Below, one piece after another: positions 2,249 to 64,000 of a stretch of DNA of 64,000 bases (position 1 is the stretch's first letter; each line of letters starts with the position of its first letter). The DNA is taken from NCBI GenBank assembly GCA_905178155.1, contig CAJINV010000005.1, forward strand, positions 8,244,515-8,308,514. Direction: 5' to 3'. Position numbers and translations under genes: made by a program. The notes under the pieces are model-generated. The model was not told the DNA's origin. It did not search any database and saw only the letters and a list, made by a program, of their open reading frames with translations. This DNA is from Amoebophrya sp. A120. Taxonomy: Eukaryota > Protista > Dinoflagellata.

Positions 2249-3000
2249 ATGGGTTTCACGCGTAGAAGAAAAAACAAGGAGCAGATTTTTGAGCAAGAGC
2301 TCCAGGGGGTATGAACTGCAAACATGTCTGAGTCTGGAGCCTTGATGTGATGCTAGTTAGTGAACGGTGGGCGCACTGCGGTATGCAGCCACGCATGACA
2401 AGTTTCTGAGGTCCTATGTGTTGCGCTTCCCGCATGACAGTTTTTGCATGACAGGTAAGAGGCTGCCTTCATGCTCATGCATTACAGATTTAAGAGTCAT
2501 GTGAGACAAGCATGACAAGCTTGCACTCTTCCAGACCCAGACATATTTGCAGTTGATAGGGGGCCCCGGATGACGAGGAAACCGGTAGTTGCGATTCAAA
2601 AAAGCTTATGCATTGCTAATATGTCTGGCTCTGGGTCTGGAAGGATGCAAGATTTGCCATGCTTGTCTAGCATGACTCTGAGCTCTGTATTGCGTGCCCG
2701 CAAAGAGCTCCTCTTTCCTGTCATGCAGAAGCGAAATTTCTCATGCGGATTACGCAACTCAGAGGCAGAACCACAACCACGGAAAAACTTGTCATGCTTG
2801 GCAGTGCATTACAATGTGCGCATTGGTCCTTGACTTGCATCACAAGTTTCCAGACCCAGACATATTTGCATTCAAAAAAACTGGCCGCCGAGAACTTGCG
2901 AATTCGACAAAAACAGGCACTGACGACTATCACGACGGTTTTGGGCACCGCGACCTTTCTCGGGGGCGTGTTGCTGGTGCTAAGGATGCTGTTTTTGTGA
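2249..3000 (+). CDS. small (~72 aa) protein with a C-terminal transmembrane helix (tail-anchored-like), 3 exons
   Basis: Removing introners 2310-2558 and 2607-2877 plus one TSD each gives MGFTRRRKNKEQIFEQELQGAPDDEETGSCDSKKLAAENLRIRQKQALTTITTVLGTATFLGGVLLVLRMLFL*. Confidence 0.7.
2310..2558. mobile_element. introner family A (TIR TAT.AA.TGCAAA.ATGTCTGGGTCTGGA)
   Basis: TAT...ATA termini, ~28-bp TIR, TSD GGGGG/GGGGG. Confidence 0.9.
2607..2877. mobile_element. introner family A with a degenerate right end
   Basis: TSD AAGCT/AAACT; excision restores SKKLAAE. Confidence 0.8.
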
Positions 3001-3745
3001 GGAAAAGTAGAGATGGAAAATGAGCTTGATTGAAATCAGGAAAACACGAATGACACACCGCACATATAAGCTCAGCTTTTGGACAAGAAGACAATCGCAG
3101 AGATGGTCCAGAGATGATGATGGTAAAGAACAGGACAGACTTTTTGTAAACACATGAGAACTACTACACCTCCGCATAGGCATTCGGCTCTCCTAATTAT
3201 CTGAAGACTACAGAATTTGTGTTTCCCCCGAAGCCTTGGCGGGACATCAAAGTCCTCCCGGTCTCAACCTTGTTCCTTCGTCCTTGAAGTTGCCGTCGTG
3301 AATAAGTACTTTTCGTCGGTTAATAGTTTCCCTCAGTAGCGAGTTACCTTCGGTCTGCTTCGTGCTTGATGTGAAGTCGCATTTTATTGCGTGCGTGTTT
3401 TTATTTTTTCGTGCAGGTCAATGTGGATTTCTGGTTCTGTGATAGCATTTTCGTGTTCTTGCGTACAGTTGTTTAGTCGTCATTGTGCAAAGCTTTTCTT
3501 TGTTTGCACCGCTGGTGCGGAAGTGCAGTCGTGAGTTTTCGTGCAAAAAATCCTTCTTCTTCGTCATCGTCTCCTTGCTTTTTTCTGAGTCTGTAGAAGC
3601 AGTAGTGTGCTCGCCACTGCTTTTTTCAGAATTATTGTGTAAGTAGCACTCACTTTCAAGAATAGACACAATCATAACTCCAAATCTAGAGTGTAATTCC
3701 CCGCCTGCAAGTGTCGCCACGAGCAAGTAAAAGCAAAACACGAAC

Positions 3746-6700
3746 ATGGACCAGGACTTGCGACCCGGACGGGGACGATCATCATGCCGCGCTGATGCCA
3801 TGGACAACGTATCAAATGTAAAATTGTCTGGGTCTGGAAGGTTGCAACTTGTGATGCTGCATTTGGATTCCAAAAAAATCTGTATTGCATGAGCAGCAAA
3901 GGGAGTGTAATTTTTGCTATGGGAAGAGGGCATTTGTCATGCGGAATAGGCATCCAGTTCCAGAAGCCCTCAAAATATCTCTGATGCTTGGGCATGCATC
4001 ACAGACATCATTGCTCATGCAAAACTTGCATGACAAGTCTCAGAATCTTCCAGACCCAGACATTTTTGCACTTGATACAACGAGACAGCGCGCAAAATCC
4101 AACGCCGAGCCCGTGCCCCGAGTCCGTATCGGCTGGCTGCAGCCGTATCAAATGTAAAAATGTCTGGGTCTGGAAACTTGTGCTGCTGGGTGGCGTCTCG
4201 TGATGAGGCCACAAGTGCTGGCTCAGCATGACAAGTTTCTGAGCTTCTAGGTGTTGCCTATTCTGCATGACAAACTGCGTTTCTGCATCACACAGAAAAA
4301 CGGAGCTCTTGGGTAACGTGCATGACAGATTTAAGAGTCATGCCAGACAAGCATGACAAACATGCATTCTTCCAGACCCAGACATTTTTGCATTTGATAA
4401 GCCGGGCCGACGATTTATTTGCTGCGCTACGGCACGATGGCGGCAACAGCCGGCGATCGCATTTTCGGTGCGGAAGGTATGAAAGTGCCCGAGACCATCA
4501 CGGAACGAGCGTCGCGAGAATCAGAATCCGAAGCGAAGTCTTTCTCTTTGGAAGGAGCACCGGAAGATGCAGAAGGACGATCGCGCGGCCCGGCAGAAAC
4601 CGTGCAGAAAAAACAAAAAGTGCGCAAGCTGTGGAAGCGCGACAGAACCAAATTTTTGGCGCCGAACGAGCTGGTGTTGGAGCTGCTGGAGCAAGACGAG
4701 GACGAGGCAGGGCACGGTATCCTGAGCAAAAACGTCCCCAGGGATCTCGCAACAGAAGTCGAGAAGTTTTGGGAGTCACGCATGAAAAGTTCATCTCTGT
4801 ATTGTATGTAGTGCAGTTTAGCAAGTGCAGCCGCATCGCAAAGCCACCTACTCATCCTGTTTATAGCATTACAAAGTCAAAAATACGATTGGAAATGCCT
4901 CTCATGGGGATGCGTGTTACAAATCTTCCTGTGAATGCAAATCTGCATGGCTGTCTGGGGTGGGAATGTTTTTACACAGGATACACGGGCCCGCATCGGA
5001 ACGGACGGAAAATGCTGTTGACGTTGTTCTCGATGCAGAAGACCCAGCGGCGTCGTTCATGGAGGCCCCCTCGCTCGGCACCTTGTTCGATGCGCTGCCG
5101 GAGTGGATGTTTTTGAAAGACTATCCAGGAAAAAAACTATGTGATGGTAGCTTTGTAGGAAGAGCAGCATCACAAATTCGTTTTACAAAGGAAACCTGCC
5201 CTGCGTAGCTAGTACGTGAAAACACGTATGAAAGTGGCCTATGACGCACATTCAGCATGACAAACGTATTAGTTTTGCATTTTTTGCATCACAAATAGTT
5301 TTTTTCTTGGATAAAGACCCAGATTCCGTGGTGTACTACACACCGGAAAGGGGAGATTCGGCCACGACGATGACCGCCGGGGAACTTTGGACCAACGTTA
5401 GAACCGCCGTGGAAGATGCTGCGGCGGGTATCTTGGCCTCGATTAATCAGCTAAGCACGGAAAAATGACAATATCTTTGCTGGGTCGGAGAGACGAAAAC
5501 ATTGCGCGTGATGCTTGGTGCAAGAGCTGTTGTTATTTCCCGTGATTCTGTTTCCGGGTATGAAGATGTAAATAGGGTGAGATACTAAGACTAAGTACTA
5601 GTTGTTTTAGCATTAGAAGCCAGTCCTTGCTCCTTGGAGGTGGACTTTTGCCTGGTGCCCGTTGCTATTCTCACAGGAAGCGCAAGCTATAGTGCGCGCA
5701 GGAGCTAATTGTGAGTAGTCCTTGCCAGCCCTTTCATAACAAATCGAGAATGCTGTGGCCTCCAAGCGCGCGGAGTCCACACGACAAACTACGGAAGACG
5801 AGAAGACGGCGTTTCTGGAGGCTGACAGTGGAACTGATGCCACCGGAACTACTCGGGGTCGGGATTTGATGGGCCCGTGGACGTTGATGCCGCGATCGTT
5901 GGAAGACAAAGAGAAACGTTTCGGTGACCGGCCAGAAGTAAAGTTTTTTGGTGAAGCGCAGCAGATTTTGAAGGAAATCCTGGGGGGGGAGGACACTACT
6001 GTGCCACACGACAAGATTATACCGTATATTCGCGAAATTGTAAGCAAATTCTACGAACAGATCGCCAACGAACACACAACGTCGAAAGAAAAGTACCGAC
6101 AAGAACTCTCGGCCGCGCTTCTAATGCGCAGAGCTGCGACAGGTGAAGCTGAGGCAGAGCGTGTGATGGGACTCAAAGCGGGGAAGAAAGGATTGGTGGA
6201 TGTCGTCGGCCACGCGACGCCGGATACGGCGGTCAAGGAAAAAGAAGAATTGCTGGAAGCGGCGGAGAAAGGTCCTCCGACCTCGCTTCACATCCTTCAG
6301 CGGATGGGTCTGAGGGCAGTGAATCTGATGCGGGGCCCGGGGCTGCTGCAAGTGGCACTAAATCTGAAGTAGATCATGATGCCGCTCGCACCGATCCCCA
6401 GTACCCACTTTTGGTGGACATCTGTAACGATCACGATCTCCAAGTCAAACTCGCGTTGGCAGAGCTAGGAAAAGGGGCCGACACTCTAGCAGAAGTTACA
6501 GACAACGAACTAATGAATGCTATTATGCAGAGGGCCAACTGCGACTTCGTTTACGTGTTCGGCGACGTACACGGTGCCTTCGAGGATTTACTACGCGTGC
6601 TGCACACGCTGCCGGACGGTCACAAGATTTCCGATTTCCCGGGACGCATAGTGTTTTTGGGCGACTACCTCGATCGCGCGACGACGCTGGGCGATAGCTT

Positions 6701-9700
6701 TTCAACCTTGTTCTACCTGTTGTGGCTGGAGGCGACGTATCCGGACAAAATTACGCTGTTGCTTGGAAATCATGAGGACTTCAGCTACTTCACGGACCCT
6801 GGAAGCGTCATGAATACTGCGTCGCCGCAGGAGCACAACGCATTTAGGTTCAGCAAAAGGGGCGCTCGGGTCGTCCCAGCGCACCAAAAGAAAATACTTG
6901 CGGAACCTCGTTGCGAAATTCATTGACACCGAATTGGGCGGACGCCGTGGTCAAGCATTGTTGTAGCAATACTAGCGCACCACAGACGTCGGCGTCCAGG
7001 AAGCTCATTCATCTTTTACGCATTCGGAATGACAATGATCATGCACGAATAGACATTCGAAGGCCAGAGTCGTGAAGGTAGCACTCGTTCTACTACATGC
7101 AGCGCTTCGGATGCGGTTGTTCCAAGATCAGGTGTATAGAAAAAAAACTCTCAGAAGTATCTATTACGTTGAAGTATTTCTTTTGCGTGTGCTGCGGGCC
7201 TCGGGGCTGCAAGGATTTTTGTGTGCGATAACCCTTTTTGGGCACTTTGTTACATTTGATGCGGTTAAGACCCTGCTGGACCCATTCTTCGCGACAGCAC
7301 CCCTTGGGGCCGTAGCGTACGACGAAGCTTTCATTGTGCACGCGGGTATTCTTGGGCGGTTAAAGCCGATTGAGGAGCTACGAAGTGTTTCTCGTCCGGG
7401 CTTTATATGGAGTGCAAGAATTGTGTATTATTCGTGCGTCCTGTCGTTCAGGATCAAGACCGATCAGGATCTGAAGGAGACGTACGCGAGCATTGGAATT
7501 GGCATGATCGGGCACTGAGCGCCAGCGTCGAGTTAAGGAAAGTGCATGCATGTACAGATACAAGTACTCGTCTACGTCTGCGAACGATACTAGCGACGCC
7601 ACGTCATAGTTTGTGCCACTCCATAGTAAAACACTGGCACTTCTGCGGGTACTACGGGGTATACGGATCAAGAGCGGGCGAAAAGCATGGGCACGAAAGT
7701 TTTCCAGACTGTGCCGGGACATGGCGGACCGCCCCCGAAGTGTAGTTCCGACGCTGCCTTACTGTGGGCGGTATCGATCTTATCTCAATCTGTATGACCA
7801 GATACAACAGGATTAGTATGATATACATTGATGTTTTTCGTTGGCGCTGTATTTTGTTTTTGTCTTTCTTTTTCTGCTGTATTGATAGAACGCGATAAGT
7901 ACTGCGCAGCGCAGTTTTGCGAATGAAGCTTTGTTCCCGAAGTGTCTCCATCACAGCGTCGCTGATCTTTTTCTCATAGAAAAATACAGCGCACCTGCTT
8001 CCGCATAGATGTGGGTGACAGACGCAGGCGGATTCGAATTTCGAAGTCTTCGTCATCTGTATGTATCCTTCTAGGTGCGCGATTCTTTCTTTATCTTTTA
8101 CAGGACCCAGCGCGGCCTGGTCACACCCAAAGTCGTTGCGGACAAGATCAGATGGTACCCGGCGGTCGCCCATGGACTATCCGGTGAGGAGACGCCCCCA
8201 ACCTGTAGTCAAGATGGTCGTAACCATCCTCGACAAATCCGCAAGTTTTGGGAGTCAAGCGTAAGAAATTTGGGCCTATGCAGGTAGACAAGTCCGCAAG
8301 TAATTTACTTGCTTATCCTAGTAGATAAATGACTTGCGAAATTTGCACAACTAGATGAAAGTGCCCCTCATACAGCGAGAGCAACATGGAAATTGCAGGA
8401 CAAAAAATCTGGCGTGGGGGCGTTTTTGCATCGGATATGGGCCGCCGAAGTAGCCAAAGAATTCTTTTCCCTTAACGGGATCAGGCTGCTGCTTCGTGGG
8501 CACGAGCCGGGAGAGTTTTCCGACATGGTAAAGAGCTTGCTTATTTGTGTAACGTCGTCGTTTGTTTCCACTTTCTTTTCCCCGGTTTGAGATGTTGTTG
8601 TCAGCACCTCAATGTTTTTTTTCTTCAGATATCGAAACAAATTAAGATCAAACTATAGTGACTTTCGTCGCTGCAAAGGGTTTTAGGGTGTCATGGATTT
8701 AGTCTAGGGGTCCTATTGTGAGGTGTGCAAATGCTGAAATTCTGGCCCACCGCACAAATCGGGAATCAAAAATGCACCAACTTACCACAGCTGCTTCAAA
8801 AATCGGGAATCAAGAATGAATATCCAACTTACCACAGGTTCTTCAAACGCTTTGGGCAGGAGCTGTGTCTGAGGCGATCAGATTCAGTGGTGCGGGACCA
8901 TGGGTTAAAGAGCTGGAGGACAGACTCAACAATCGCAAGAACATCCTCCAACGTAACGCACATGAAAACTATGTGGTTGAGCTACGAACGGAATTCGTCA
9001 ATGATCGTTCTGGGCCTTACAGTGCCAAATTGGACAATGGCAACGTGGTGTTCTTGTTCTCGAGCCCGAAGTATGGATCGGATTCGAGGAACCTCGCATC
9101 TTTTGGTAGGTTGGATCGAAGGATAAATGATGAAGAGCCACGACCACCACCTCATGTTTTTGGTGAAAAGGGAGCCCTGGACAAATTTGTGGGGGAGTCA
9201 AATCGCCACGCAACTTCTGTCAAACAAGCGCAGGAGTACCTTTCTCGCCTCCCTGAAGAGTACAAGCATACCAACCCAACATTGCTGCAAATCTCTGGCG
9301 AAAAATCCCCATACAATTACGATTCTATCCATCCGGACCGGCCGGCACGAAAGCGACTCGACGCTATCAAAGGTAAATGCTTCTGGGTCTGCAAAAGTGC
9401 AGATGTTTGTCATGCTGCTTTTCAGTGACGAAGGAGAAGGTCATTTGGCATGCAAGCTCTAGCGTCACACCTTTTAATCTTAGTAACGTTAGTAATGCAT
9501 GACGGTGTTATCAAGAATAAGAAATGGCAAAGCTTTTTTTGTCCATGCGTGACCGACTTTTTCGTGATCTGAAATTGTGTGCGGCAGTTTCCAGACCCAG
9601 GCATGTTTGTAATTCACAGAGGCTCAAGTGTCGCAATTTGTGGAGCAGCTCGACAAAATCAAAAGCCTCGACGACAAGAAGCCGTCCAAGTTTACGGAGA

Positions 9701-9786
9701 ACTACTACGTTTTCGGAAGAGGTTCCTTTGAGCCGGGGGCAGGGGACGAGCAAAAAGTAGAGTGGGTTCCCCTTGATGATGAGTGA
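3746..9786 (+). CDS. PPP-family (calcineurin-like) Ser/Thr protein phosphatase with a long N-terminal extension; multi-exon, possibly frameshifted or decaying
   Basis: Motifs GDVHG (~6561), GDYLDR (~6660), LLGNHE (~6758), VHAG (~7337), LLRGHE (~8490) and FLFSSPKYG..N (~9050). The 5' exons join in frame after introner removal; the internal exon structure over 5430-8870 is uncertain. Confidence 0.7.
3810..4077. mobile_element. introner family A
   Basis: TIR plus TSD CAACG/CAACG. Confidence 0.9.
4146..4399. mobile_element. introner family A (same subfamily at 11858 and 13647; reverse orientation at 55221)
   Basis: TIR plus TSD AGCCG/AGCCG. Confidence 0.9.
4718..4983. mobile_element. introner family B (TIR TATCCTG.G.AAAAACGTCCCCA)
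   Basis: TIR plus TSD CACGG/CACGG. Confidence 0.9.
5122..5313. mobile_element. introner family C (TIR TATCCA.GAAAAAAAC)
   Basis: TIR plus TSD AAGAC/AAGAC. Confidence 0.85.
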
Positions 9787-10485: not shown

Positions 10486-13400
10486 ATGACCGACAACTCC
10501 ACTTCTCCGCGGAACAAGCAGCGGACCATGACCGCCTGGTCCGCGGCTTCTTCGAGTTGCGGCACGGCCTATCCTGCGTGAAAACGTTTTCCTCCCAGAG
10601 TCAAGTTGCGAAGTGTACAACACAAATCCAGAAGTATTGGGAGTCACGCATGACAAGTTCCTCTCTGTAGTGTAGTGCAGACTCTTAGCAAGGACAAGCG
10701 CATCGCAAGACCATCAGCTCGTCCTGTTTACAGCATCACAAATTCCAAAAATTGACTGAGATGAATGCCTCTCATGGGGATACGCATGACAAGTCGTTCT
10801 GTAGATGCAAAAATTCTGCATAACAACTCAGAAGTGGGGACATTCTTCAACAGGATACGGCCAATTCCGCGGTGACCGGGTCCAGTAATGGAACGAATCA
10901 AAATTCGCAGTTTTCTTTCGGGAACTCGAATACCGGAAATAACCACCTCGACCAAACAGGCTCCGGGCCGTCGCCGTCGGGCCAAAATAGCAGGAACTCC
11001 GGTGGTACTGGTAGTGGTGGACCAGGAAACAACAATAAGCCGACGATTTTGATGTTAAACAATTCCATCACGAAGGAAAACAGTGAGGCCAAGAAGAAAA
11101 TAAACAAAACAACAACCGAAATAAATTCAACTGCCTCTTCGAAGCAACCGATAATTCCTTCTGGGTTTTTGCTAAAGAAGTTCCTCGGCTATGATCCCTA
11201 CAGCGGGTCCCTCACCGACCACTACGAACTGGGGCAAGTGTTGGGGCGTGGGGCTTATGGGGAGGTCGTGGCGGCGCGGCTTAGGCCGAGGTCCAGATTA
11301 TTCTCGTCGGTTTGCTTGTCCTGTTGTCTGTCAAAGCAGAAAGTCGAAGCGTTGATCGCGGCGCCAGATTATCTAGTGCAAATATGTCTGGGTCTGGAAA
11401 AGTGGAACTTGTAATGCGTGCCTTGCATTCCTGGAAAATCTGTGTTGCATGAGCAGCAAAAGAGGAGCTTCCTTTGCAATGAAAAACGCAATTTGTAATG
11501 CGTGCTAGGCAGCCATCAAGAGGCGACGTCTGAAAAACTTGTCATGCTTGGCTGCCATTGCAACCGCTTCCGTCATCCGCAACTCCGCACCACAGGTTTT
11601 CACACCCAGACATATTTGCATTTCATACGGATCTGGACGAGTTGATCGAATCGTTCCGGAACAAACGGTATCCTGTGCAAAAGTATCGTGCTCGCATTGC
11701 AGTCGTGCATTACAAATTTTTTTTCTTGCGGTAAATCCGCATGACAAATTTGATTTCTCTTGCTGGGGAAATATGTAATGCATACGAGTACGATACCTTT
11801 GCAATGCATAAACGGAACTTGAACGCGGGGCGGCACGACAGGGACAAGGACAGCACCTATCAAGTGCAAATATGTCTGGGTCTGGAAACTTGTGATGCTG
11901 GGTGGCGATTCACGAGGAGGCCGGAAGTGCTGGCTCAGCATGACAAGTTTCTGAGCTTCTAGGTGTTGCCTGTTCTGCATGACAAACTGCGTTTCTGCAT
12001 GACAGAGAAATGGGGCTCTTGGATGTTGTGCATGACAGATTTAAGAGTCGTGCCAGACAAGCACGACAAACATGCATTCTTCCAGACCCAGACACATTTG
12101 CAATGCATAGCACCAGCGCAGGCACGATCTCGCAGGGGCTGAGTGCGAGTAGAAGGATGATGCGAAACACGCTAAACTCCATGCCGTTGGGGAGATTTCG
12201 GGATCGTGAAGCCGAGGAGGCTATGCATTTCAAAAGCATTGTGCCGTTAGTAGGAATCGCATCGCAAATTTTCTCAGCATTAGACTTGGAATTTGTAATG
12301 CTGATTTGCCTTTGATAAAAAAATTTGTCATGCATGGTTGCGATTACTATGAGTGCGATATTACTTTTGCACAGGATAGAGGCAGAGGAGGACATGGATT
12401 TCGAAGAGATCCTTGCGATTAACGAGAGAGATATTCAAGAAAAAAACTGTGTGGGTGTAAGTCTGTAATGCAAAGGATACAAAACAGCTACGCTTGTCAT
12501 GCTGGCCAGCCATCAGCTGCTATTTATTTTCAACTGCGTTTTCGCGTGATATTACTAGCTGTGCATGACAGGTTTTATTTCTCCGACAGCATGCAGTGCA
12601 AATTGAAATTTATCATGCTGTACGTCCAAGACACCTACCCTCTTTTTTTTCTTGGATAGGAGAACAAACGGCGCAGCAGCAACAGCAGCAAAACCGAACT
12701 TCTACTGCGTCGAACAGTGGGAACAATAATAACAAGCTATCAAAAGGAAATTTCCCCCCTCCCCATATCAAAACGAAACTTCTCATGCTGGATTTGTGCA
12801 CACAAATCAGATTTGTCTTGCTGCCGAGGACTGCAGGCCCATATCAGGCCTGAGTAGATAAGTTTTGGCCTAGGCGCTTAGCATGACAGACGTCTACGCT
12901 TTAGGAGCAACAGCATGACGAACCGCCTGTAGAATGTGGCGGAGCCTGTAGATTTGCCTTCATGCAATACAGCGACGATTTGTCGTCTCAAATCAGCATT
13001 ACAAATTTTCAGAAGTGTACCGGTTTGGTATGGGGAGGGGAGATTTTTCCTCACAATACAAGCCGAAAGTCTTCCGGAGCTTCTTGAAGGTACTGTTACT
13101 TCTATGGCAAATTAGTAACTAGAGCTCGTGCGCATTTTTAATCTAGATCTTCAGTTTCTTGTCATGCACATGCGGTATCTGTTTCTGTGGTGTGCATGAA
13201 TTACTTATCTTTGATCCAGATCCACAGCATGATCTTCGGGAAAGCCATACTACGTTCGGCTAAAAATTCTCCGCATGATCATGATCTTGGTGGACCAGAA
13301 AATTCTACAATTACCAGGGCACCACCACGAGTCCGACTTCCCACAGCCCCGCTATCATAAGAAAAAAGTGTTACAGTTACACATTTGTTCGTAACTTTAG

Positions 13401-42663: not shown

Positions 42664-42778
42664 AGGTAGCTTTTGGAAAAGAACCCAAGCGACAAAACAA
42701 GTTGTACTACTGAGGAAAAACACAAGGTAGCTTATTTTGGAAAAGAACCCAAGCGACAAAACAAGTTGTACTACTGAG
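42664..42778 (+). repeat. ~50-bp direct tandem duplication, intergenic
   Basis: TTTTGGAAAAGAACCCAAGCGACAAAACAAGTTGTACTACTGAG occurs twice. Confidence 0.85.
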
Positions 42779-48400: not shown

Positions 48401-48973
48401 TAACTCCTTCCTCGCGAACATAAAACGACTGAACAACCACCAGCAGACGCGAGACGAGACCCTATCAAGTGCTCATATGTCTAAGTCTCCGAGATTGCGA
48501 GGTTTGTCATGCTCGTCTGGCATGACTCTGGACTCTGTGTTGCGTGGCCGCAAAGAGCTCTTCTTGCCTGTCATGCAAAAACGCAGTTTGTCATGCGGAG
48601 TACGCAACTCAGAACCAGGAATGCCCTGTCATGCTTGGCAGCGCATTACAGTGTGCTCGCTATTCCCTTCCTTGCATCACAAGTTTCCAGACCCAGACAC
48701 ATATTTGCATTTGATAGACCCTGGATGAGGCGCAAAGAATTTTCGGCGCGGAGCACCAGGATTTATATCGAGAGTACTTTCTTAATGTTAATGTTGAATG
48801 ATGTTCATTTGTGATTTGTCTGTGATGCATGAAATGAATGGTGCGGATTTTTGCGCTTGATGTGACCATGGAGGATTTTTTTCCCGTCAAACTTGCGCCG
48901 CATCACAAGGTTTTTTTTTTACATGATGAAAAATTCTTTCAGGTTTGTCCAGCTCCTGAACCGGCATGCGTAG
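45473..48973 (+). CDS. At4g15545-like conserved coiled-coil protein, with a mix of GT-AG introns and introners
   Basis: Spliced: MASREGEMTWLPEQHEEQLQLGFRIIDNAFKNKIHGLEQEIRAL...VELIESHQRTQQLGEENKELFRTVQALKKQVSRLDDLKKTLMAS...VDGKQFFRNARARLSYEAFNSFLANIKRLNNHQQTRDETLDEAQRIFG...FVQLLNRHA*. The C-terminus resembles the At4g15545 family (recognised from memory, not searched). Confidence 0.75.
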
Positions 48974-50690: not shown

Positions 50691-53600
50691 ATGAGACGTC
50701 GGAGGTGGTGTGCAACAAGCCGGAAGCTCTTTCTACTCCGCACCATGCCAGGTCTCTCGTCCCACCTGTCGCGGCTCCTTCTCTCGACTAGTAGCCTTTC
50801 GGCGCTAGAAGTCGAAGTAAAAAACCTCCTCCTTGTTGCGGCCCTTGACGTTGGCGGTCCAGAGCAGGATGAAACTATTCCCCCTTCTGACGAGCAGAGT
50901 AGCATTGTTGAAGAGGATTTGCCAGCAGGACCTGCTGGTGCTGATCTATTCGCCACTAGTAGAGCTGCATCTTCTGTAATAAGTCTTGGCGAGGGACGAG
51001 GTACTTCTAGTCCTCTAGCTGCGCAGCAGGAGACTAAGAACGAGGAAGAAGAGGTCGCCGGGCATGCTGCAATCCAGCTGAACGACCTTGACAACAACGA
51101 CCTCGATGCGCTGACAGTGGAAAAAAACCTCGAGGAGTTGCTTTATGCTGAACAGAATGTGATATGGATTGCAAAAATGCTTGGGTCTGGAAGGACGCGA
51201 ACTTGTAATGCTGTCTTTGGATTCCAAAAAAATCTGTATTGCATGACCAGCAACAGGACTCCAGTTTGTGTTACGTGGAGAGGGCATTTCTCATGCGGAA
51301 TAGGCACTAGGAAGCCCTCTAAAAATCTGCGTTGCTAGATCATGCATTAGAGGCATCAAGCATCATACATAACATGCATGACAAGTCTGGCACTCTTCCA
51401 GACCCAGACACTTTTGCATTTGATATGTGAATGAAGATCTTGGTAGAAGTTTCCCAGAGCCAGACGAGGACGAATTTTTCGGCAGCGGCAGTAGTACCTC
51501 CAGCAGCGTTATCAAATGTAAAAATGTCTGGGTCTGGAAGAATGCAACTTGTCATGCTAAATCTGAAGCATGCAAATATCTGTGTTGCATGATTGCCAAA
51601 AGTCGTCCAGTTTTGACCAAGTCCGGAGGGAGTTTCTCGTGCAGGATAGGCATGAGAGAGATCGCGCCGAATCTGTCATGCTAGGTCCTGCATTCCAGAC
51701 CTCAAGGGTCATGGAAAAGCTGCATGACAAATCTGACAATCTTCCAGACCCAGACATATTTGCATTGGATAAGCGTCGGGATTCTGGATGAAAATGCGGA
51801 ATTTTCCGAACCGGAAGAGGACGGTGCCGCCTCGTCGTTCACACAAATGGCGGGCAGCAAGCCGCTATCCTTCAACAAGAGAGGATCTTCGACAAGAAAG
51901 TCAAATCCATCTGCAGAGGTAGGAGCGTTGTCACATGCATCTCCAGGAAGTAGAACATCAGGAGCGGAGGCTGCTGCTGCACGAGATGAAGTTCTTGGGA
52001 ACAGTGGTACTGGAGCAGGAGGCGACCACGATTTTAGTATTTTCCCTGACGACGAGGACGACCACGACGACCTCCTTGCTTCCTCTAATTTATTTCCCGC
52101 GGAAAATGAAGATGTAGGTGACCTGGTACTAAACGCAACCGGCACCACATTTCTCCAAAATAAACAAACCATTTTATTGGGGGAGAATCAAGGAGAAGCA
52201 TTGTCTATGCGGAAGCAAGCAGATAAGTTATCAAATGCAAAAATGTCTGGGTCTGGAAGAGTCGGGACTTGTCATGCACATTTTGCATGACCCGTGAGGT
52301 CTGTGATGCTGGTGCTAGCATCACAGATTTTTTGAGTGCTTCTTAAATGATGCTAATTACGCATAAGAAATGCCCTCTCCGCGTGCCAAGAACTGACTCC
52401 TCATGCTGCTCATGCAACACAGATATTTTTAGAATCCGCAGACAGCATTACAAGTTGCATTCTTGTTCCAGACCCAGACATTTTTACATTTGACAGAAGT
52501 CGCGGATGAACAACGGGAAGACCACAGAGAGACGAGAAGGCGACAAGGATGACGAAAAAGAGAGGTCGCGGGGGCGCACCAGCAGGGGCGGTGGCAGAAA
52601 CCGGTCGCGGTCTCGAACAAGCAGAGAAGATGACAAAGACGATCGTCGTCGGCGTCCCGCTCGGCGCGAGGGAAGGAGCAGGAGCCGCGAGCGGGAGCGA
52701 AGCAGTGCGACGCGTCGCGACCGAGAACGGCCTAGAAGCCGAGAAAAGCCGCCAGCCCGGCCACCTCCGCGACCGCGCAGGCCCCCTCCGCGGCCGCCTG
52801 GTTACAATCGAGGACCCCCACCACGGTATCCGCCACCTCCCGGGCCGCGTGGTGTCCCTCCTCCGCAGGAACAGTCAGCTGCAGAGCCAGCTCCGGCTCG
52901 CACCACGCGGGCGAAATCGAAGCCGAAGCCCCCACCGGTGGACAAGGAATTGGTTCGCGACGAAGCACGCACGGCGGTGCAGACGGCCTTGACGCAGGGC
53001 ATGACAAAGCAGAAAGAAAAGCAGTCCAGTTACGAGCAACAGTCTTCCAGCAAAACGGCCTACATCCTGGAAAAGGACCTGTGGAGCGCGTACTTTTCCG
53101 ACTCCGTGCGAACACTGGCGAACTTGGAAATCCTGCCGCCCGTGTGTCCCAAAAATTGCGGCGAGGAAGGTATTATGCATTGCAAAAATGTCTGCGTCTG
53201 GGTCTGGAAGGATGCAACTTGTAATGCTAATTCTGGATCGTGCAAAAATGAAAATCTGTGTTGCATGAATGCCAAAAGCTGTCCACTCTTGACCAAGTTG
53301 AGAGGAAGTTTCTCATGCAGATTAGGCATGATAGGGATCTCACAGAATCTGTCATTCTAGGTTCTGCATTCCAGACGACATGGATCATGGAAAATCTGCA
53401 TGACAAGGCTTGGAATCTTCCAGACCCAGACATGTTTTCATTTGATAGGTGTGGAGTGCTCCTTGGAAGACTTCGCTGACCTCGAACTCCGCTGCGCGGG
53501 ATATGGCGTTCTCAAATGTTACATTCTCAACTGTTACATGATTTGTCATGCAAAATTCGAGCCAGAATCGTCGCGATCAAGCTGCTTCGCATGACAAATT

Positions 53601-56600
53601 CTCGAAGTGCCAAATAGGCTAAAAATCTGTGCCAAATCTGTCATGCAAAAGGCGCAATCTTTCCCCTTTTAGTTTTCCCATGCTTGCATCACAAACTCAT
53701 GTAACAGTTGAGAATGTAACAGTTGAGAACGCCATACGGGAAACTCCAAGCCGCTAAAACTGGCGGACCCCCAAGGCTGGCTCCACGTTTCGTTTGACGG
53801 GAAACCGTATGAAATGCAAAAGTGTCTGGGTCAGGGTCTGGAAGATTGCGAGACTGTCATGCTGATCTGGCGTGACCCTTAAATCTGTATTGCGTGGCCA
53901 CAAACAGCCTCTCTCGCCTGTCATGCAAAAACGCAGTTTCTCATGCGGAATACGCAGCACAGAAGCACGAAGCAACTTGTCATGCTCGGCGGCGCATTAC
54001 AGTGCATTTGTTATTGACTGACTTGCATCACAAGTTTTCAGACCCAGACATTTTTGCATTTGATAAACCGAAAGTGCAGACTTTGCAGCGGAAAAACGTG
54101 GAAGTCACCTTGGCGACCGAGGCGAAGAGCAGGCTCGCAGGGCTCGCGAACTGGTTTTCCGGTACGCGTTCCGAGGTGGCGAATATGAAATGCAAATATG
54201 TCTGGGCGGTCTGGGAGATTGCAACATTCGTCATGCTAGTCTGGCATGCCTCTGAACTCTGTATTTCATGGCCGCTAAGAGGAGCTCCGCCTCCCTGTCA
54301 TGCAAAAACGCAGTTTCTCATGCGGAATATGGAACTCAGAACCATGAAAAAAACCTGTCGTGCTTGGCAGCGCATTGTAGCGAGCTCACTATTCCCTTCC
54401 TTGCATTACAAGTTTCCAGACCCAGACGTATTTGCAATGCATAGCGAAAGCAGAGCTGCAAGACACCTTCAAGAAGGACAAGAGCTTTCACGAGCACCTG
54501 GTTGGGGTGTCCCCGACTCAATTCCTCGCCGCGATGCTCAAGTCGTGGAAAAACGCCCCGGACCCGTTTGGAAGGAACGGATTCGATATGGATTGCAAAA
54601 GTGTCTGTCATGCTAAAGCCGAATCATGCAAAAATCTGTGTTGCATGACTGCCAAAAGCTGTCCACTTTCGACCAAGTTGGGAGGGAGTTTCTCATGCAG
54701 GATAGGCATGACGGAGACCTCACAGACGCTGTCATGCTAGGTCCCGCATGCCAGACCTCATGGGTCATGGAAAACCTGCATGACAAGTTTACACCCTTCT
54801 AGACCCAGACATATTTGCAGTTGATATTCGATCCCTTCGCCTCGCAGGAGACGTTTCTGAACAGTTTGAAGAGCGTATTACAGTGAAAAATGCGCCCACG
54901 ACCCCAGAACTTGGAAGTAAGTATTTGTATTGCAAACCTTTCCAACGGAAACATTCGCCGTCTTGCATGTATCAGCATCACAGATTTTCAATCGTGAATA
55001 GAAAAAATCTGTATTGCAAAAGATCCCAGCAAGAGTGGCGCTTGTCATGCAAGCGATGCTGTATGCGACTAGACTCTGCATCAGAAAGATTCATAGTCCG
55101 TTCATGCAAGACAAAAAGTTTTCATTTGGAAACTTCGCATCACAAACACAAACTTTCGGGGTGGGGGCATCTTTCCGTTTGATAGAGCGGCCGGGAATTC
55201 TGTTGGTTTGAGTCGCTCTCTATCAAGTGTAAGAATGTCTGGGTCTGGAAGAGTGCATGTTTGTCATGCTTGTCTGGCATGACTCTCAAATCTGTCATGC
55301 ACGTTACCCAAGAGCGCCATTTTTCTGTCATGTAGAAACGCAGTTTGTCATGCAGAATAGGCAACACCTAGAAGCTCAGAAACTTGTCATGCTGAGCGAG
55401 CACCTGTGGCCTCCTCATGATACGCCACCCAGCATCACAAGTTTCCAGACCCAGACACTTTTGCATTTGATACTCTCCATGATGCAGTTCGGCACAGACT
55501 GGCAAGGCGACTGGCGAGGTACGGGAAGAAATGGGAAGTCCAGCCTGCCACTTTACCCAACGCCGACGCTGGAGATCCGCCCGGGCAAGGAGTGCATGAA
55601 GGAAGACAAGGACATCCTGCAAAATATCCTGTGTAAAAACGTCCCCACCCCAGAGTTGTTATGCAAATTTGCAATGACAGGAGCGCTTGTAATGCGCTTC
55701 CCCATAACAGGCATTTTCAATCGTGTTTTCGCATTTGTAATGCTGCAAACAGAATAAGCAGATGGATTTGTGATGCGGATGTCCTTGCTAACATGCACTA
55801 CACTGCGGACTGCAACTTGTCATGCGTGGCTCCCACAACTTCTGGATTTGTGTTGCTAAGTTCCCAAATTGATTATGGGGCGGGGACGTTTTTACATATG
55901 ATACAAAAGATGAACGACGCTAAGGCGGCCAAGGAAGAAAGTTGGCACGGCGCGGTGCAGAATCGCTACCAGAGCATGCAGCGATACTTTGGGGGCGGCT
56001 CCACCAGTGAGGAAGGCGTCATTGTATCAAATGCAAAAATGTCTGGGTCTGGAAGAATGTAAGCTTGTCATGCAGGTTTTCCATGGCCCATCAGGTCTGG
56101 AATGCGGGACCTAGCATGACAGTGTCTGTGAGGTCTCTGCCATGCCTATCCTGCATGACAAACTCCCCCGAAACTTGGTCGAAAGTGGACAGCTTTTGGC
56201 ACTTATGCAACACAGATTTCTGCATGATTGGGATTTAGCATGACGAGTTGCAATCTTCCAGACCCAGACATTTTTGCAATCCATACATTGCGGGGAGCGA
56301 CAAAATCCCGTTTGAGACAAATGTGGCCGATTTGGTATTTCTGCGGCCAACGGACCAAATGGTGCTTTCTCCGAAGCTGAACATGCGGGAGTTCCGGCTT
56401 TTCACGGGGAATGGGAAGTTCGCCTCTATACAAGTCGAAGTTCTCGGCGAAATTCGGTTGTACCGATCAGAAGGCAGCAATCGCGCAGCAAGGCCGTTGT
56501 TTTCGAAGTGGTACCTTGCTCCGGGCGCAGGTGGGAACAGGCAGAGTCCGCCGAACTCGCAGCTGTTATCCTCTGCAAACGTATTGTACTTCGTAGTAAT

Positions 56601-59600
56601 TGCAACTCTGCATGAGCATGACCAATCTGATCTCGCGTGTAAGGTACGCCAGCAACACAAATCCCATTTTATTTCATGTTGAGCAAATTTGTATAGGTAA
56701 TTGCCACTGATACGATGCTTTTGCAATGCATAGCTGTCCTACACTTCCAATCTGCTGCAAGGAGAGAACAATGCGCAAAAGATGCAGCTTACCGTCAACC
56801 AGCCGATCCCCTCGGGAGAGAAGTGTCCGGTGCAGCTGCAGTTAAAAAGTAGCAGCCAGCTCGGGAAGGCGGAAGACGAACAGTTCATCGAAGATCTGGA
56901 AGATGCTACTGCGCTCGTCGCGGTCAAACCCATTCTCCTGTGGCTCCTGCATGACCCGCTCTGCGAGTCCCTGCGGCGCACTGGACTCGAGCGAACGGCA
57001 AACGGTTTTGATCCTCTCGTGTCTGGAGAAATTCTGCCGGCCGCGTCTTCGTTCGTCGAGGAGAACGTAGAAGAACAAGAAGGGCTGCAACGTGAAGAAC
57101 TGCAACAGGAGAAAGAAGAAAAACGCTCGTCTCACCGTCTCCGCGCGGCCGCGTGTGGTGCGAGACAGGGTCCCGGGGCGGGCGCGCTGGGTATCAAATG
57201 TAAAAATGTCTGGGTCTGGAAGATTCTGACACTTGTCATGCACGTTTTGCATGAGCCATGATGTCTGTGATGCATCCCCTAGCAATACAGATTTTTTGAG
57301 GGCTCCTTGATGCGTATTCCGCATGACAAGTGCCTTCTCAGCGTAGCAAAAATTGCCTTTCCTTAGGTACTCATGCAATACAAATTTTTTTGGAATCCAA
57401 ATGCAGCATCACAAGTTGCATTCTTCCAGACCCAGACACTTTTGCACTTGATACTGGGCAAGGCGGTGCAAAAGTTGAAGGCGCTGGCGGCGAATTTTGC
57501 GTCAGACAATCCGCTGGAGAAATACCAAAAATTCGGCACGAAAAAGGAGTTCTACGTGACCGCGCACTCCCCGACTCCGGCGGGCACTGCCCCTCCCGCG
57601 ACCCTTCCGACCCCGGCTTTGCGACGAATGAACAGTGAGATGACCGGGCTGGAACGCGCGCTACACTTGCTCTTTGACCACACCAGCAAGCAGAACCTGT
57701 TTGAAGGCTTGAAAATTGCGGCGCAAGCGAACCACGCGCGGGCAAGGCTGTACGAGAAACAACTGGCCGACCACTTGGCAAGGCAAAACAAGGCCCCGCC
57801 GAAGCCGGTGCCCAAGCCGAGTTGGTGGACGCGGGCGGCCGCGGGTCTGCGGAACAGGTTTGGGGACGACAAACAGCAGGACTTCGAATATCTCACGAAA
57901 AAACTGTTTCACTGTGATTATTTATTTGCAAGTTTTGCATCACAAGTTTGTTCTACATCACAAAGGAAGTTTGCAGCCATGCGAGCTTCCTAAGGGAAAA
58001 CACGACTAAATAATGCATTTTCTGGCATGTGTAGCAAGACAGACACTTTTGCGATGCACTTTCTGCATGAGAAACAGTTCTTTCTTGCGATATCGAACTA
58101 AAAAAGATCAATCTTGAATGGGATTTCGACTCCATGAAAAAATACGCGGTCCACATGCTATATGCAGTGCACAAGGATCGTACTCGTACTAATTGCGTTT
58201 ATGCATTACAAATCTTTTTCTTATCCGCATTGCAAATTCAATTTGTAATGGCTAAGGCAATTTGTAATGCAATTTATACTAGTAAGATGCTTTTGCACTG
58301 CATATGCTACACCCGAAACGGGAATTTGATTTTTCGAGCAACCGACCACAAGACGGCAACCAGGTCCACGCGGACAAAGTTCTCTCCGACTACGACTCTG
58401 TGACTACCGGTAGCGGGCGCAACGTGTACGATTTTGGGCCGAACAACCTACCCCCGGTGCGGCTTGCGAGGTTGATGCGGTTTCTGCAGTACAGCAATTA
58501 TGGCCTAGCGGTGGCAGCGAAGCAGAAAATTACCCCGGGATCCTTCCCGGGCACGGAGCCGGGTCTGGGCCCGGGCCCCGTGGCGATGATCAAAGATCCG
58601 TTCAAAATCGCGTCGCCATTCGACACGAACGAAATTCTGGAGGGCCCGGGAGAAAAATCGGACAAGACACTGATTTTGAACTATTTTAAGCGCAACAAAA
58701 TACCGATGATTGACATCCAGGACGGCATATCAAATGCAAAAATGTCTGGGTCTGGAAGAGTGCCAGACTTGTCATGCAGATTTTACATGACCCATGACGC
58801 CTGTAATAGATACCCTGGCATCACAGATTTTTAGCGGGCTTTCTGATGCCTATCCCGCATGAGAAATGCCCTCTCCATGTAGCACAAACTGGACCCCTCG
58901 TCTTGCTGGTCATGCAATACAGATTTTTTCAAAATGCAGAAACAGCATCACAAGTTGCAATCGTCCAGACCCAGACACTTTTGCATTTGATACGGCATGC
59001 GCCGGGTGATGGACGCGAGCGAAGACATCGGGAACTCGTTCGATCTATCCTATGTAAAAACGTCCCCACCCCATAGTTCTTGTCATGCAAATCTGCATGG
59101 TAAAATGCACCTCGTTTGTGTAAGAGATTTCCCTTCGTAAGAAATAAGCACTTCGTAAAACGTATCGCCATTGCCCTCGCTCATGTAGAAATACCAAGCA
59201 GATACTACAACAGACTAGCAGCGTGCGGGGGGAGACCAATGTGGTCTCCCCCCGCCCGCTGTGACTATTAAAAAACACACCAGAGAACTTCTTTTTTTCC
59301 AGCAGAGGCTGGTCGTGGGTTGTGGGGATGAGAAATAGAAACAATATGCTAGCACGATTTGGAGTCAGCCGCAAGCTCTTTAAGATTTCCGCTTCGCTTT
59401 ATTTCAGTTTTACAGCACAGACAAGCAACTAGATACAGACTAACAGACACTAAGTTCAGAAGAAAACACTACGAAAAGCGAAGATCTGCCTGCTAGCGCG
59501 GACATACGATACGCACGCGGGGGAGGAGGGGGAAAACGCAAGCGAAGCGAGAACAAGACGCGCAGTACAATGGGCTGGAGCAGAGGACAAGAGCAGATAG

Positions 59601-62600
59601 TAAGAATATCAAAACAAGATGAAAAGTGCACGCATGCACGCGCACTGCTTAACTGTGTGAAAGGTGTCGGCCCTGTTTGACCTGCTGCGGCAGGCAGGTG
59701 AATTCGTAGAACTGCCTCACATGTTAAGTAACGCACACCGGCCTCCTAGTTTTAGTGATGAATTAGTGAGTCCAATTAGATAACGATGAAAAAATTAGAT
59801 AACGAATGACTAGAATAACTGAATGATGAAAAATTTATATGCGCAGCGGCTTACTGCGCAGCGTCGGTTCGTGCACGTGTGTCGCTCTTCGTTCGTTGTC
59901 TCCAGGAGCTTGATCGTAAATTCGTGCGCTCCTCCTGCTTTATAAAATTCGATCTTCCCATCTGCCCCCGTTTTCCCACGTAGATTTAGATCTCTACCCT
60001 TTTATATCTTCTGTCGTTTAGTTTTGTTGTTTTGCCTGACTTGCCTTCTTAGCGCTAGCCCGCGCATCCCGCGTTCTTGCAGGGGCAGCTGTCTTTTTTT
60101 CCGCCTTGCCAGCGGATTTTGTCGCGGGGAAGAAAGCACTCTGGGTTCAACGGTCCCCGCCCCCCCTCGTCGTGGGTTCAACGGCCCCCATCCCTAAAGA
60201 GACCACTTAGAAATAATTCTACAGTAGATTGCAAATTTTACAGCGGTCGCCCGTTTTGCATCGGCCGAGGCTGCACACGCGTCCGGAGTATTTTTCACTG
60301 ACGTCCCTCGGCTTGGGTCATATGATGTTCTTCGTCAGGTCGCGCAGCCTCTATTAATGCGATTCGGGTCGGCTGCGCCCTATGGCTAGTATCTGTGATC
60401 CAGCTCGTCCATATATTTCGGGTTTCGACCCGAATAGCGCGCACTAGGCGCAACTATCTCTTTATACAGTGGTCTCTCCCTATCTTTACTATCTTTCAGT
60501 GCAGCGGCTTACTGCACTTATCGCCCTACGGAGACTGTGATCTGACCTCCCTCTACCTCCCCTGGTGGACGTCTGCCGCGGCTTACGGCTCTGGACGTTA
60601 ACTAGGATCGAGTGCGTTGTGCGGGTTTAGGGTTTTGAATATTTAATTTTGTATCTCCCACTGCTGCATGCACCCTGCTGCAGAACTTGTGATGCAAAAC
60701 AACCTCCGGGTTGTTCCCGCGCTTCAGGAGTAGTTCTGTTGCGTGCGGGCAGCAGAAGATGAGTAATGCTGTTGGTTTAGGGGGTTGAAAATGTTTGTGC
60801 ATGTGTAATGCAAAAGATGAAAAAGATTCGCGCGTGGGAGCGCATTTTTAAGCACAACGGGCGGGTGCCGTTCCCGCCGTCACACAATCACATACAATAC
60901 AATACAACAGAGCGGGGCCCAATCAAAAAAAAAAAAAATCTGCATGGTAAAATTGTTTCTCATGCGGAGCCCTATGGGAAGTGTTTTCTCGTCGTGTTTG
61001 GTGGAAATTTATGATGCTTGAATCAGCATGCTAGGCTAGGCCTGTGATGCTGCTGGGGCTAACTAAACAGGATAATGCTCCGAAGCCAAATTTGTCATGC
61101 GCAGCAACCAAAGCTGGTGAATTTGTCTAGCAGGATTCTCATCTTCACTCTGGTGTGGGGACGTTTTTCGATAGGATACGAGCGGCAAATCAACGCGAAC
61201 GACGTGAAGTCGCAGCAGGGCGGGCGGTTTCAGTGGCTCCACCTCGGGTGGCACCTCACCGCGACGCCCCAGCCCTTGCCCGCTTCGGGAACCACCGCAC
61301 CAAACGACGTACTGTACGGCATCCGGCGAAAGGCGATAGGGGACGAGATCGCTGACATCTTGCCGGAATTCCAGCTGTCGCCCGACACCGCGTTCAGTAT
61401 CCACGAGCAGCCGTCGGTAGGCCCACCTGGTGGCACCAAATTTCTCGATTTGGGGCAGCAGGTTTTGTCCCCAATTCCGACCACGTTTCACGTCACGAAC
61501 TTTTTGACAAATTTTTGGAAGAAGCAGCCGGTAAAGCAACAGCCGTATATAGCCAAGGCGATTTTGCGGGACGGCTTTGACGAAGACAACGGGTGGCACG
61601 ATGGCATCGTTGTGAAAATGGGTAGCAAGAAAAAGTTTGACTTCAACGAGGCCCATAAACCGGTGGATTCTATGAGAGTGCACAACTCCTCCTCCCCCTC
61701 ATTTGTATTGCATGAGCAGCAATGCAGACACCAGCACACGTCGAGCCTGCACATGACAAACTCAGTCGCCTAATGTACTGCTGTTTGGGTTTATTCCGGA
61801 ATCTGTCATTGAAACAATGCCACAGGGAAGCACTTGGACTTGGGTTTTTGCATCACAAGTGAGGGGGTATCGGGGGGGTTGTGCACTCCTATAGTTTCCT
61901 TCGAGAAGCCGGAAGTGGCGGCGGCCTGGTACCAAGCTTTGATTGCGTCCAACCCGCTGGCGTCTCCGCGAGGTCCCAACCCCATGATGACGTTCAAGAA
62001 CGGATATGCATTGCAAAAGTTGTATCGTACTAGGTAGTACAAATTGCATATTTCTCAGCGTGAAAAATAAAAATTGAATTTGTCATGCTGTTTTACCTTG
62101 GAAATGCGATTTGTAATGCATCACTGCAATTGCTACGAGTGCGATACTTTTGCACAGGATAACGGAGCTGGCGAGCTGATTTTCGCCAAGATTGCGGAGT
62201 TACTGGCGCTACTGGAACGGTCGTGCTGCGGCGAGATCGAGTTTTTTTGCGCGATATCAACTGTAGAAATGTCTGGGTCTGGAAGAATGCAACTTGTCAT
62301 GCTGATTTTGAATTCTAAAAAAATCTGTATTGCATGGGCAGCAAAGAGAGTCCAAGTTTTGCTACACGGAAAGAGCATTTGTCATGCGGTATAGCATCAG
62401 GAAGCCTCACAAAATCTGTGATGCTAGGGCATGCATCACAGACATCAGAAGTCCTGCAAAATGTGCATGACAAACGTGGAAATCTTCCAGACCCAGACAT
62501 TTTTACATTTGAAACGCGAAGAAAATTGAGACGGTCATGGTGAAGGACGAGAGCGGCGAGTTTGCGAAGTGGAAAAAGGAAAAGCAGCAGAAGCTCGACG

Positions 62601-64000
62601 CCGATGGGAGAACGGCTCTGCGCGGGGGAGCTGCTGCGAGCAGCACGACCGCTGGTGCCAGTACAACATCGGACGAACCTCCTTTCCCCTACCCCTGGCC
62701 GGTGGCATCGTTCTGTTCGGTGAAAGAGGAGTACGTGCGCAAATTCAGCCTGGCGCGGGAGTTCAAGGACCCAGGTACTGGCACGATATGACAGTGCGCA
62801 ACTCCCCCTCCCCCTCATTTGTCATGCAAAAACCCAAATCCAGTTGCTCGTTGTGGCGCCGCGTGCATGACAAATTCCGGAAAGCCCGATAGTACTACAC
62901 TCGGAGCATGAACCTGTCATGCACAGGACGCACCTGTACTGGTGTTTGTAATGCTGTTGATGCCACGCAAATGATAATGAGGAGGAGGTGGGGGGGTTGT
63001 GTACTCTCATACACGAACGCGTTGGATGTGAAGCAGTACGAGGTATTTGGAATATCAAATGCAAATATGTCTACTGGGTCTGGAAGTTTGGGATTTGTGA
63101 TGCTAACTCTCGATCCTACAAAAAACTGTATTGCATTACCAGCAAAAGGCGCTCAGATTTTTGCCACGACCCGGATCGGGCATTTCTCATGCAGGATAGG
63201 CATGATGAAGCCTTCGCGAGGGCTGCGATGCTAGAGAATGCACCACAGGCATCGTGGGTCATGTACTATATGCATGACAAACACCCAACTTTTCCAGACC
63301 CAGACATATTTGCAATGCATATGGAGACAAAAGCAACAATAGCAAACCTCCTTCACCGACCGCGTCGCTGTTCACCATGACACAGCGAAAAATGTACAAG
63401 AACTGCGGGCCGATCCCCAATCCCGAGGCAAGGCGGTCGAACTTGGAGGACTTGGTCGGCGACCGGCTGCAGTTTAACACCGGCCAAGCAGTGGAGGATG
63501 AAAAGTGGATCGAGGCGATTCGGGCTGTGTTACCAGTCATTGAATCGGCGGTGCGGGTGTACGATGAGGACTACTTTCACAACTTGCACCATCAGAACGC
63601 GCACGACTACAACCTGCGGGCCTCGAACCCGGAAAGTTCGTCGTCCGAGTGCAAAGTGAACATGAACGAGAAACTTCCGGTCGCAGAATGGCAAGTGGGG
63701 AACAGCTATCAAATGTAAAAGTGTCTGGGTCTGGAAGAATGCAACTTGTGATGCTGCATTTGGATTCCAAAAGAATCTGTATTGCATGAGTACCAAAGGG
63801 AATGTAATTCTTGCTACGCGAAGAGGGCATTTGTCATGCGGAATAGGCATCAAGAAGCTCTCAAAAAATCTGTGATGCTAGGGCATGCATCACAGACATC
63901 AGGGCTCATGCAAAACGTGCATGACAAGTGTCAGAATCTCCCAGACCCAGACATTTTTGCAATGCATAACAGCAACAGCGGGACGCGCGAGTCGAATCAA
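50691..64000 (+). CDS. very large uncharacterised protein (at least 25 exons; acidic and Arg/Pro-rich N-terminal region), continues past the window end
   Basis: Open frame maintained across 24 consecutive introner excisions from 51163 to 63968. No domain recognised. The start codon could alternatively be near 50745. Confidence 0.75.
53502..53736. mobile_element. introner family L (TIR TATGGCGTTCTCAA.TGTTACATTCTCAACTGTTACA, with internal tandem repeat)
   Basis: Near-perfect ~38-bp TIR, TSD CGGGA/CGGGA. Confidence 0.9.
55221..55472. mobile_element. family A introner, reverse orientation relative to 4146-4399
   Basis: Internal sequence is the reverse complement of the 4146/11858/13647 copies, TSD CTCTC/CTCTC. 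Confidence 0.9.
59046..61178. mobile_element. family B introner expanded to 2.1 kb by a retro-insertion
   Basis: Both TIRs present, TSD CGATC/CGAGC, frame restored on removal. Confidence 0.8.
59107..60935 (+). mobile_element. non-coding poly(A)-tailed retroposed insertion (SINE or truncated LINE-like)
   Basis: Flanked by direct repeat AAATCTGCATGGTAAAAT (59089-59106, 60936-60953); A-run at 60925-60938. Confidence 0.75.
63707..63968. mobile_element. introner family A (close relative of 3810-4077)
   Basis: TIR plus TSD ACAGC/ACAGC. Confidence 0.9.

Follow-up and report, generated by a model that had tools for sequence, protein, structure and literature searches.

Transposon-derived non-canonical introns of Amoebophrya sp. 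A120 leave together with one target copy, likely at a 1+4 register

The genes in a stretch of 64,000 nucleotides from the genome of Amoebophrya sp. A120 (called the window in the following) are interrupted by inverted-repeat elements with the ends TAT...ATA. These elements are transposon-derived non-canonical introns, and each is removed as the element together with one copy of its target site duplication (TSD). The intron likely has the form N-TAT…ATA-NNNN, which means that it starts one nucleotide before TAT and ends four nucleotides after ATA. The system is already known under the name of the A120 introner elements. New here, and testable, are the 1+4 register and the way in which it matches the GTA donor.

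Elements and target site duplications

In total 90 elements with terminal inverted repeats (TIRs) were curated from window scans, BLAST and deposited proteins.

2310..63968, plus strand, 90 TIR elements with 5-bp TSD, 88 exonic, one intergenic and one within a GT-AG intron
25769-25983, the intergenic element
35110-36097, the element inside the GT-AG intron

A relaxed scan contributed 78 of its 89 candidates (11 overlapping or spurious pairs were dropped) and a strict scan one more, while eight degenerate elements came from BLAST and three from the deposited proteins. In the strict scan 77 TAT…ATA pairs were flanked by identical direct repeats of 5 bp. At a length of 100-350 nt there are 70 such pairs, compared to a mean of 2.5 in 50 Markov simulations, and 63 of the 70 carry a TIR, compared to a simulated mean of 0.02 (maximum 1). 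The TSDs are exact in 69 of the 90 elements; 17 have one mismatch, three have two and one has five. Both ends are exact in 83 elements, all 90 start with TA and 87 with TAT, and a few ends read TGT/ACA. An earlier note on this DNA, made from the sequence alone, had described about 85-90 such elements of mostly 125-320 bp in at least ten families. The curated set agrees well with that: 85 of the 90 are 125-325 nt long (median 262, summed length 27.3 kb), 89 elements group by their bodies into nine multi-copy families and 13 singletons, and at least ten TIR types can be told apart by eye.

Each of the five largest families contains elements in both orientations, with counts of 11/23 for family 0 and 11/6 for family 1; the related loci described below give 39/32. 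The elements are repeated in the genome, as their depth in sequencing run X1 reaches thousands of times the unique depth. As in MITEs, they are short, have TIRs and TSDs and lack coding capacity. Their targets resemble ordinary exon sequence, and a preference for RTATAY or CCGG is absent. The 3' end of another element lies at 173-228 and is probably truncated by the start of the window.

A metagenome scan with the element-end pattern led to 134 related loci (620 kb) from one assembly. They contain 459 elements which were found without requiring a TSD; 322 of them are flanked by an exact 5-bp repeat and 49 by a 2-bp repeat, and any other length occurs at most eight times. One locus, L063, is the orthologue of 52897-57145 in a related strain, with an exon identity of 92-99%.

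53174..56732, plus strand, 10 elements compared with L063, eight facing empty sites with one 5-bp copy and two shared

L063 has two private elements of its own, for which the corresponding window sites are empty. The 5-bp duplication is proven by the empty sites in this relative, and these hold regardless of whether the L063 contig is chimeric, as it could be. The identity between L063 and the window changes near 55904 from about 92-98%, where the elements differ, to about 98%, where they are shared; recombination between strains and a chimeric contig are the alternatives.

Some elements carry further insertions.

16914..17635, plus strand, nested element of about 720 bp with the 11-bp TIR GTAGTGAGGTC; copies at 24926-25627 and about 31081-31796
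59106..60935, insertion of about 1.8 kb in element 59046-61178, no ORF over 117 aa

Two of the three copies of the 720-bp element sit inside introners, and it resembles families 26 and 71 in the part of Gozashti 2025 used here by size only. The introners 28169-29118, with a non-coding insert of about 0.8 kb, and 59046-61178, with the insertion of about 1.8 kb, leave the frame open after removal of the element plus 5 nt. A candidate for an autonomous element in the related loci (L067:476-2934) is a short introner with an insertion of about 2.2 kb, which has a 415-aa ORF on the minus strand without a Pfam match.

Genes and reading frames

All genes of the window are encoded on the plus strand.

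2249..3001, plus strand, small gene predicted in silico, 73 aa, hydrophobic C-terminus, two elements
3746..9786, plus strand, metallophosphoesterase locus, six catalogued elements, frame not joined into a single ORF
10486..22424, plus strand, Ser/Thr kinase, 1,109 aa, 30 elements and three GT-AG introns
18669..18920, plus strand, element splitting the kinase catalytic loop (HRD|IKPEN)
26787..41513, plus strand, DHHC palmitoyltransferase, 2,028 aa, 19 elements and one GT-AG intron (34847-36836)
37869..38019, plus strand, element directly after the TTIEF motif of the DHHC gene (TTIEF|CEKK)
45473..48981, plus strand, conserved protein (PF25972), seven elements and five GT-AG introns; corresponds to the deposited protein P0022
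50643..64000, plus strand, large gene of no assigned function that extends beyond the window end, 24 elements, 1,836 codons or more

Retention of the element would break the frame for 86 of the 88 genic elements. In the large gene, removal of the element plus 5 nt gives 1,836 open codons across the 24 elements, and the frame opens only at removal lengths congruent to 5 modulo 3. A profile search with this gene gave a single spurious match (21%). An Rfam search gave no matches. The DHHC protein aligns to two homologues without gaps across four junctions.

Two loci show additional irregularities. At 3746-6923 in the phosphoesterase locus a stop at about 5467-5469 overlaps an ATG and the frame changes near 6300-6370; both are identical in DNA and RNA-like contigs, and two genes, recoding or a pseudogene are alternatives for this locus. 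A possible extra decayed element ends there at 5738. In the GT-AG intron of the DHHC gene the beginning of the downstream exon is present in two additional copies (34977-35029 and 36187-36253), and the intron also contains a TAT...ATA element of 988 bp whose TIRs are 67 bp long.

Length and level of removal

The deposited A120 proteins P0019 and P0022 are 100% identical to window exons; P0019 corresponds to the last 872 aa of the 1,109-aa kinase. Exactly the element plus 5 nt is missing at all 33 junctions covered by them (26/26 in P0019 and 7/7 in P0022), and 30 of these 33 elements had been catalogued before the comparison. The observation of the earlier note that deletion of the element and one TSD restores the ORF, including the HRD|IKPEN and TTIEF junctions, is confirmed. 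Homologues run without gaps across five of the P0022 junctions. The deposited proteins are translations of the genome and not independent reads; the A120 gene models were built from transcript alignments, according to section 25 of Farhat 2021 (PMC7789003).

Both deposited models can be amended. P0022 as deposited reads into the GT-AG intron 48774-48942, and removal of that intron gives the C-terminus EFVQLLNRHA, as in homologues. P0019 is without 237 N-terminal residues (10486-12156), which include the kinase GxGxxG loop that is conserved in A25.

Four sequencing runs were compared with window positions 2200-22199, of which X3 is RNA-like, as we guess, and X1 DNA-like. Depth of X3 is low over intron-rich bins and that of X1 is flat. 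Contig pieces of X3 end at 3803 and start at 9622, which are the leftmost placements of predicted junctions. Joins in this region are swamped by repeat copies, and those seen are repeat-to-repeat joins from X1; RNA that spans a predicted junction was not among them. The raw RNA run X9 yielded 42 reads, all of them partial matches, and X4 covers little unique sequence. In the RNA-like runs shares of 0.42-0.44, compared to 0.41 expected from exons and 3' UTR, are no more than a hint.

From these data we infer that removal very probably happens at the RNA level. The opposite, an excision from the DNA in an expressed life stage in the manner of ciliate IES, or genes that are dead, appears highly improbable. 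Transposon geometry permits clean excision and L063 has empty sites; however, the private elements of L063 and the two shared ones fit strain polymorphism, and a 5.4-kb contig of X1 retains two elements and is identical to the window across both. Long intact ORFs and conserved proteins speak against dead genes.

Splice register

The register is described here by k, the number of TSD bases retained from the left copy, and six registers were compared. Perfect TSDs hide k; it becomes visible in diverged TSDs. Register information is present in just five of the 33 protein-checked junctions. The following elements are relevant.

45812..46049, plus strand, intron of the P0022-gene element 45813-46045, 1 nt + element + 4 nt, borders CT...CC
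16695..17698, plus strand, kinase element, TSD TTACC/TCACG, cut after base 2-4, nested insertion inside
15605..15889, plus strand, decayed kinase element, TSD AACCT/AACCG, base 5 from the right copy
22039..22226, plus strand, decayed kinase element, TSD TGCCT/CGCCA, cut after base 1-4
9365..9618, plus strand, degenerate element, TSD GACGC/GAGGC, piece of an RNA-like X3 contig starts at 9622

The element 45813-46045 is decayed, its family was assigned by the similarity of its ends, and its TSD copies differ at all five bases. It provides the sole junction that cannot slide, and only k=4 fits. The Glu of SSLEVEL that results from k=4 is present in 10 of 10 aligned proteins. The kinase junctions allow k=2-4, and k=4 is the only one of the six registers that reproduces both P0019 and P0022. 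At the element 9365 the left copy likely supplies at least three TSD bases (k≥3), if the joints are placed leftmost. In the comparison with L063 three of three polarisable TSD changes after insertion (right base 4, left base 5 and right base 2) lie on the intron side at k=4. Five junctions, one RNA-like contig end and one strain comparison are thus in accord with k=4. The start of a further contig piece at 5743 would agree with 1+4 as well; as the upstream partner of this piece is not visible, it was not counted.

As one junction decides the register, we regard 1+4 as probable, and not as certain, for a general rule. A cut at the RNA level that varies within the TSD by element or family, with no single register, seems quite unlikely to us. 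According to the legend of Fig. 3 in Farhat 2021 (PMC7789003), the position of the splice sites varies with respect to the hairpin. Two elements whose TSDs are of the GGT type could have GT-AG borders at a different register, and the small number of informative junctions also leaves room for it. However, register 4 is common to all informative junctions, which come from several element types, and sliding within direct repeats would give variability in annotation anyway.

The sections of Farhat 2021 (PMC7789003) used here leave the splice position and the borders unknown. We found no literature that fixes the splice register of A120, in a search that covered largely journals without subscription; the part of a tunicate paper (PMC13326754) used here does not mention Amoebophrya. 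The splice sites of Gozashti 2025 were considered as evidence for the register and set aside. For family 2 a 5' NT is found in 69% (6,681/9,716) and a 3' AN is equally frequent (6,598) in the part of the data used here, so that these sites cannot separate 1+4 from its mirror. This pattern probably reflects sliding of the aligner.

Intron borders and internal motif

A GT-AG intron is possible at any register in two of the 88 genic elements and a GC-AG intron in another count of 2/88; at the 1+4 register none of the 88 has GT-AG borders, unlike canonical U2 introns with their GT/GC...AG. Among the 33 protein-checked junctions GT-AG would be possible at one and GC/GA-AG at three. This bears out the statement of the earlier note that most junctions cannot be GT-AG. 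No preference for +1G or a terminal AG was seen in the 88 genic elements. Frame-preserving GT..AG pairs lie within 15-20 nt at 46 of the 88 elements and are excluded only where proteins or homologues can be compared.

All nine GT-AG introns which are fixed by proteins or homologues (13090-48942) begin with GTA, and at k=4 all elements have TA at +2/+3, as GTA donors have. The earlier note had proposed a removal that is not based on GT-AG; that is correct for the dinucleotides, but the likely register would keep +2T and +3A of the GTA donors.

Terminal variants were found at 5' positions 1-2 in 2/12 and at the mirrored 3' positions in 11/13. With one ambiguous row dropped, this asymmetry has a pooled p=0.001, and p=0.009 if limited to TSDs that have no more than one mismatch. 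If split, p is 0.029 in the window and 0.057 (not significant) in the loci, where it is 0.13 in the strict set. A predicted drift of the final base of the intron towards G (window, 6 vs 1) was not replicated in the loci (2 vs 6; 268 oriented elements, 140 unassigned). G at TSD base 4 is mildly in excess (37/88 in the window, 96/268 in the loci), which may be a codon-phase effect.

The motif TGT(C/G/A)ATGC occurs 9.9 times per kb in the elements and 6.1 times in GT-AG introns, compared to 0.06 in exons and 0.12 in intergenic DNA, and is carried by all nine GT-AG introns. Since the motif is shared, it suggests that some GT-AG introns are old, decayed introners. As a branch site the motif found no support: 20 of 85 elements have no sense copy, and its distance from the 3' end is 36-277 nt. 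From its placement, putative subterminal protein-binding sites would fit better. No branch site was identified in the elements.

Comparison with known systems

According to the sections of Farhat 2021 (PMC7789003) used here, the introners of A120 have TAT, seven variable nucleotides and an A-run, with direct repeats of 3–5 nt. The window proteins are identical to those of A120, the terminal logos of our elements fit this pattern (TAT, seven variable nucleotides, at least three A), and the legend of Fig. S19 has a 5-bp example. The mean length of 240 nt given there for the non-canonical introns is close to the median found here. Variable repeat lengths were reported in that source, whereas the TSD in the window is uniformly 5 bp and the cut appears to be 1+4. 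The earlier note had called the phenomenon probably not new, which is right and understated, as Farhat 2021 already has the start with TAT, the A-run and repeats of 5 bp; the combined rule of 5 bp and TAT in the earlier note sharpens the published description.

In file 8 of Gozashti 2025 (PMC12130899), as far as used here, 58 rows belong to A120, mostly labelled 'TIR DNA, Unknown' and about 105-350 bp long. These families also have many non-canonical sites, and family 38 is described as '5-bp TSD, TA/TA Termini' and labelled Ginger. The TSDs called automatically there are between 2 and 11 bp long, splice mechanisms differ by family, and no common register is given in these A120 rows.

One transposase lineage for all elements, as proposed in the earlier note, is plausible. 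Transib transposons have CAC termini and a 5-bp TSD; with the ends TAT/ATA they are ruled out, in agreement with that note. Its statement that no superfamily could be matched has to be qualified, because the Ginger label on Gozashti family 38 provides an integrase-like lead. As given in the part of Bao et al. 2010 (PMC2836005) used here, Ginger elements end in TGTNR, Ginger1 has a 4-bp TSD of the CCGG type, Ginger2 prefers AT-rich RTATAY, and TDD-4/5 have 5-bp TSDs. A length of 5 bp would fit the TSD of TDD-4/5, with no RTATAY or CCGG preference seen here, and a few ends read TGT/ACA; the TGTNR termini differ from the TAT that predominates here. No integrase or transposase was found in the long elements of the window or in six long pairs in the 620 kb of related loci.

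Introns derived from MITEs, with TIR and TSD and an adapted spliceosome, are described for Fritillaria borealis in the part of PMC11282704 used here. They have mostly AG-AC/AG-AT borders, whereas no terminal dinucleotide is fixed in our elements. Euglenid introns likewise combine an asymmetric terminal pairing with direct repeats, which make their junctions slidable; their signature N3CDG...CH'GN5-6|R and circular products (PMC12501133 and PMC11282704, in the parts used here) differ from N-TAT...ATA-N4.

Mechanism of removal

In the mechanism that we propose, a non-autonomous TIR transposon, which would be mobilised in trans by a putative, perhaps integrase-like, transposase, inserts into an exon and duplicates 5 bp. 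The TA of the TIR would serve the spliceosome as +2/+3 of the donor, and the distance from the TIR would set the 3' cut, without an AG. With a symmetric TIR, and a TSD that makes up for the bases that are lost, splicing would be scarless at any site and in either orientation, and this would explain the invasion.

The best explanation, towards which we lean somewhat, is a spliceosome for which +1G and the final AG do not matter and which cuts at the fixed 1+4 offset; that the chemistry as such is spliceosomal is fairly probable. With +2T and +3A of the GTA donors retained at the 1+4 register, a modified spliceosome is more likely than a system unrelated to it. Farhat 2021 (PMC7789003, in the sections used here) found U2, U4, U5, U6 and 83 of 89 spliceosomal proteins in A120 and did not find U1; with these snRNAs present and U1 undetected a relaxed spliceosome is the most economical reading. 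Removal guided by the hairpin comes next in our order of preference, followed by variable registers and finally by DNA excision or dead genes.

In the hairpin-guided case, which is non-spliceosomal and euglenid-like, a structure-guided nuclease would cut the TIR hairpin at 1+4 and the exons would be ligated. We consider this unlikely, though several observations would agree with it. Families 0 and 1 and the related loci are independent of orientation, structure prediction brings the ends together in 82 of 85 cases (as expected from TIRs, and without a control), no terminal dinucleotide rule exists, and U1 was not found. Euglenid introns, too, have an asymmetric offset in their pairing, and they are released as circles, according to the part of PMC11282704 used here. 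However, G.U pairs on the sense strand barely exceed A.C pairs, with 67 vs 54 at TIR positions 1-15 (p=0.28) and 100 vs 70 at positions 1-20 (p=0.026), which indicates weak selection on an RNA stem. Pairing is poor at TIR positions 4-10 (36-72 of 87), element 45813 is removed exactly despite its decayed TIR, and the 5' TA seems more constrained than its 3' mirror.

For the relaxed spliceosome a broader rule can be formulated tentatively, and it is possible rather than probable: all TAT...ATA introner families of A120 would be cut at 1+4 as if by a ruler, only the TA at +2/+3 would be read, and some GT-AG introns would be old copies.

Significance

The invasion by introners was published before; where and how these introns are cut had been left open. 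If the 1+4 register is true, exact 5' and 3' ends are predicted for tens of thousands of introns, and it becomes directly testable whether a spliceosome can do without the dinucleotides at both ends. A fixed register would correct gene models, and it would explain why this genome can live with a transposon in every few hundred bases of coding sequence.
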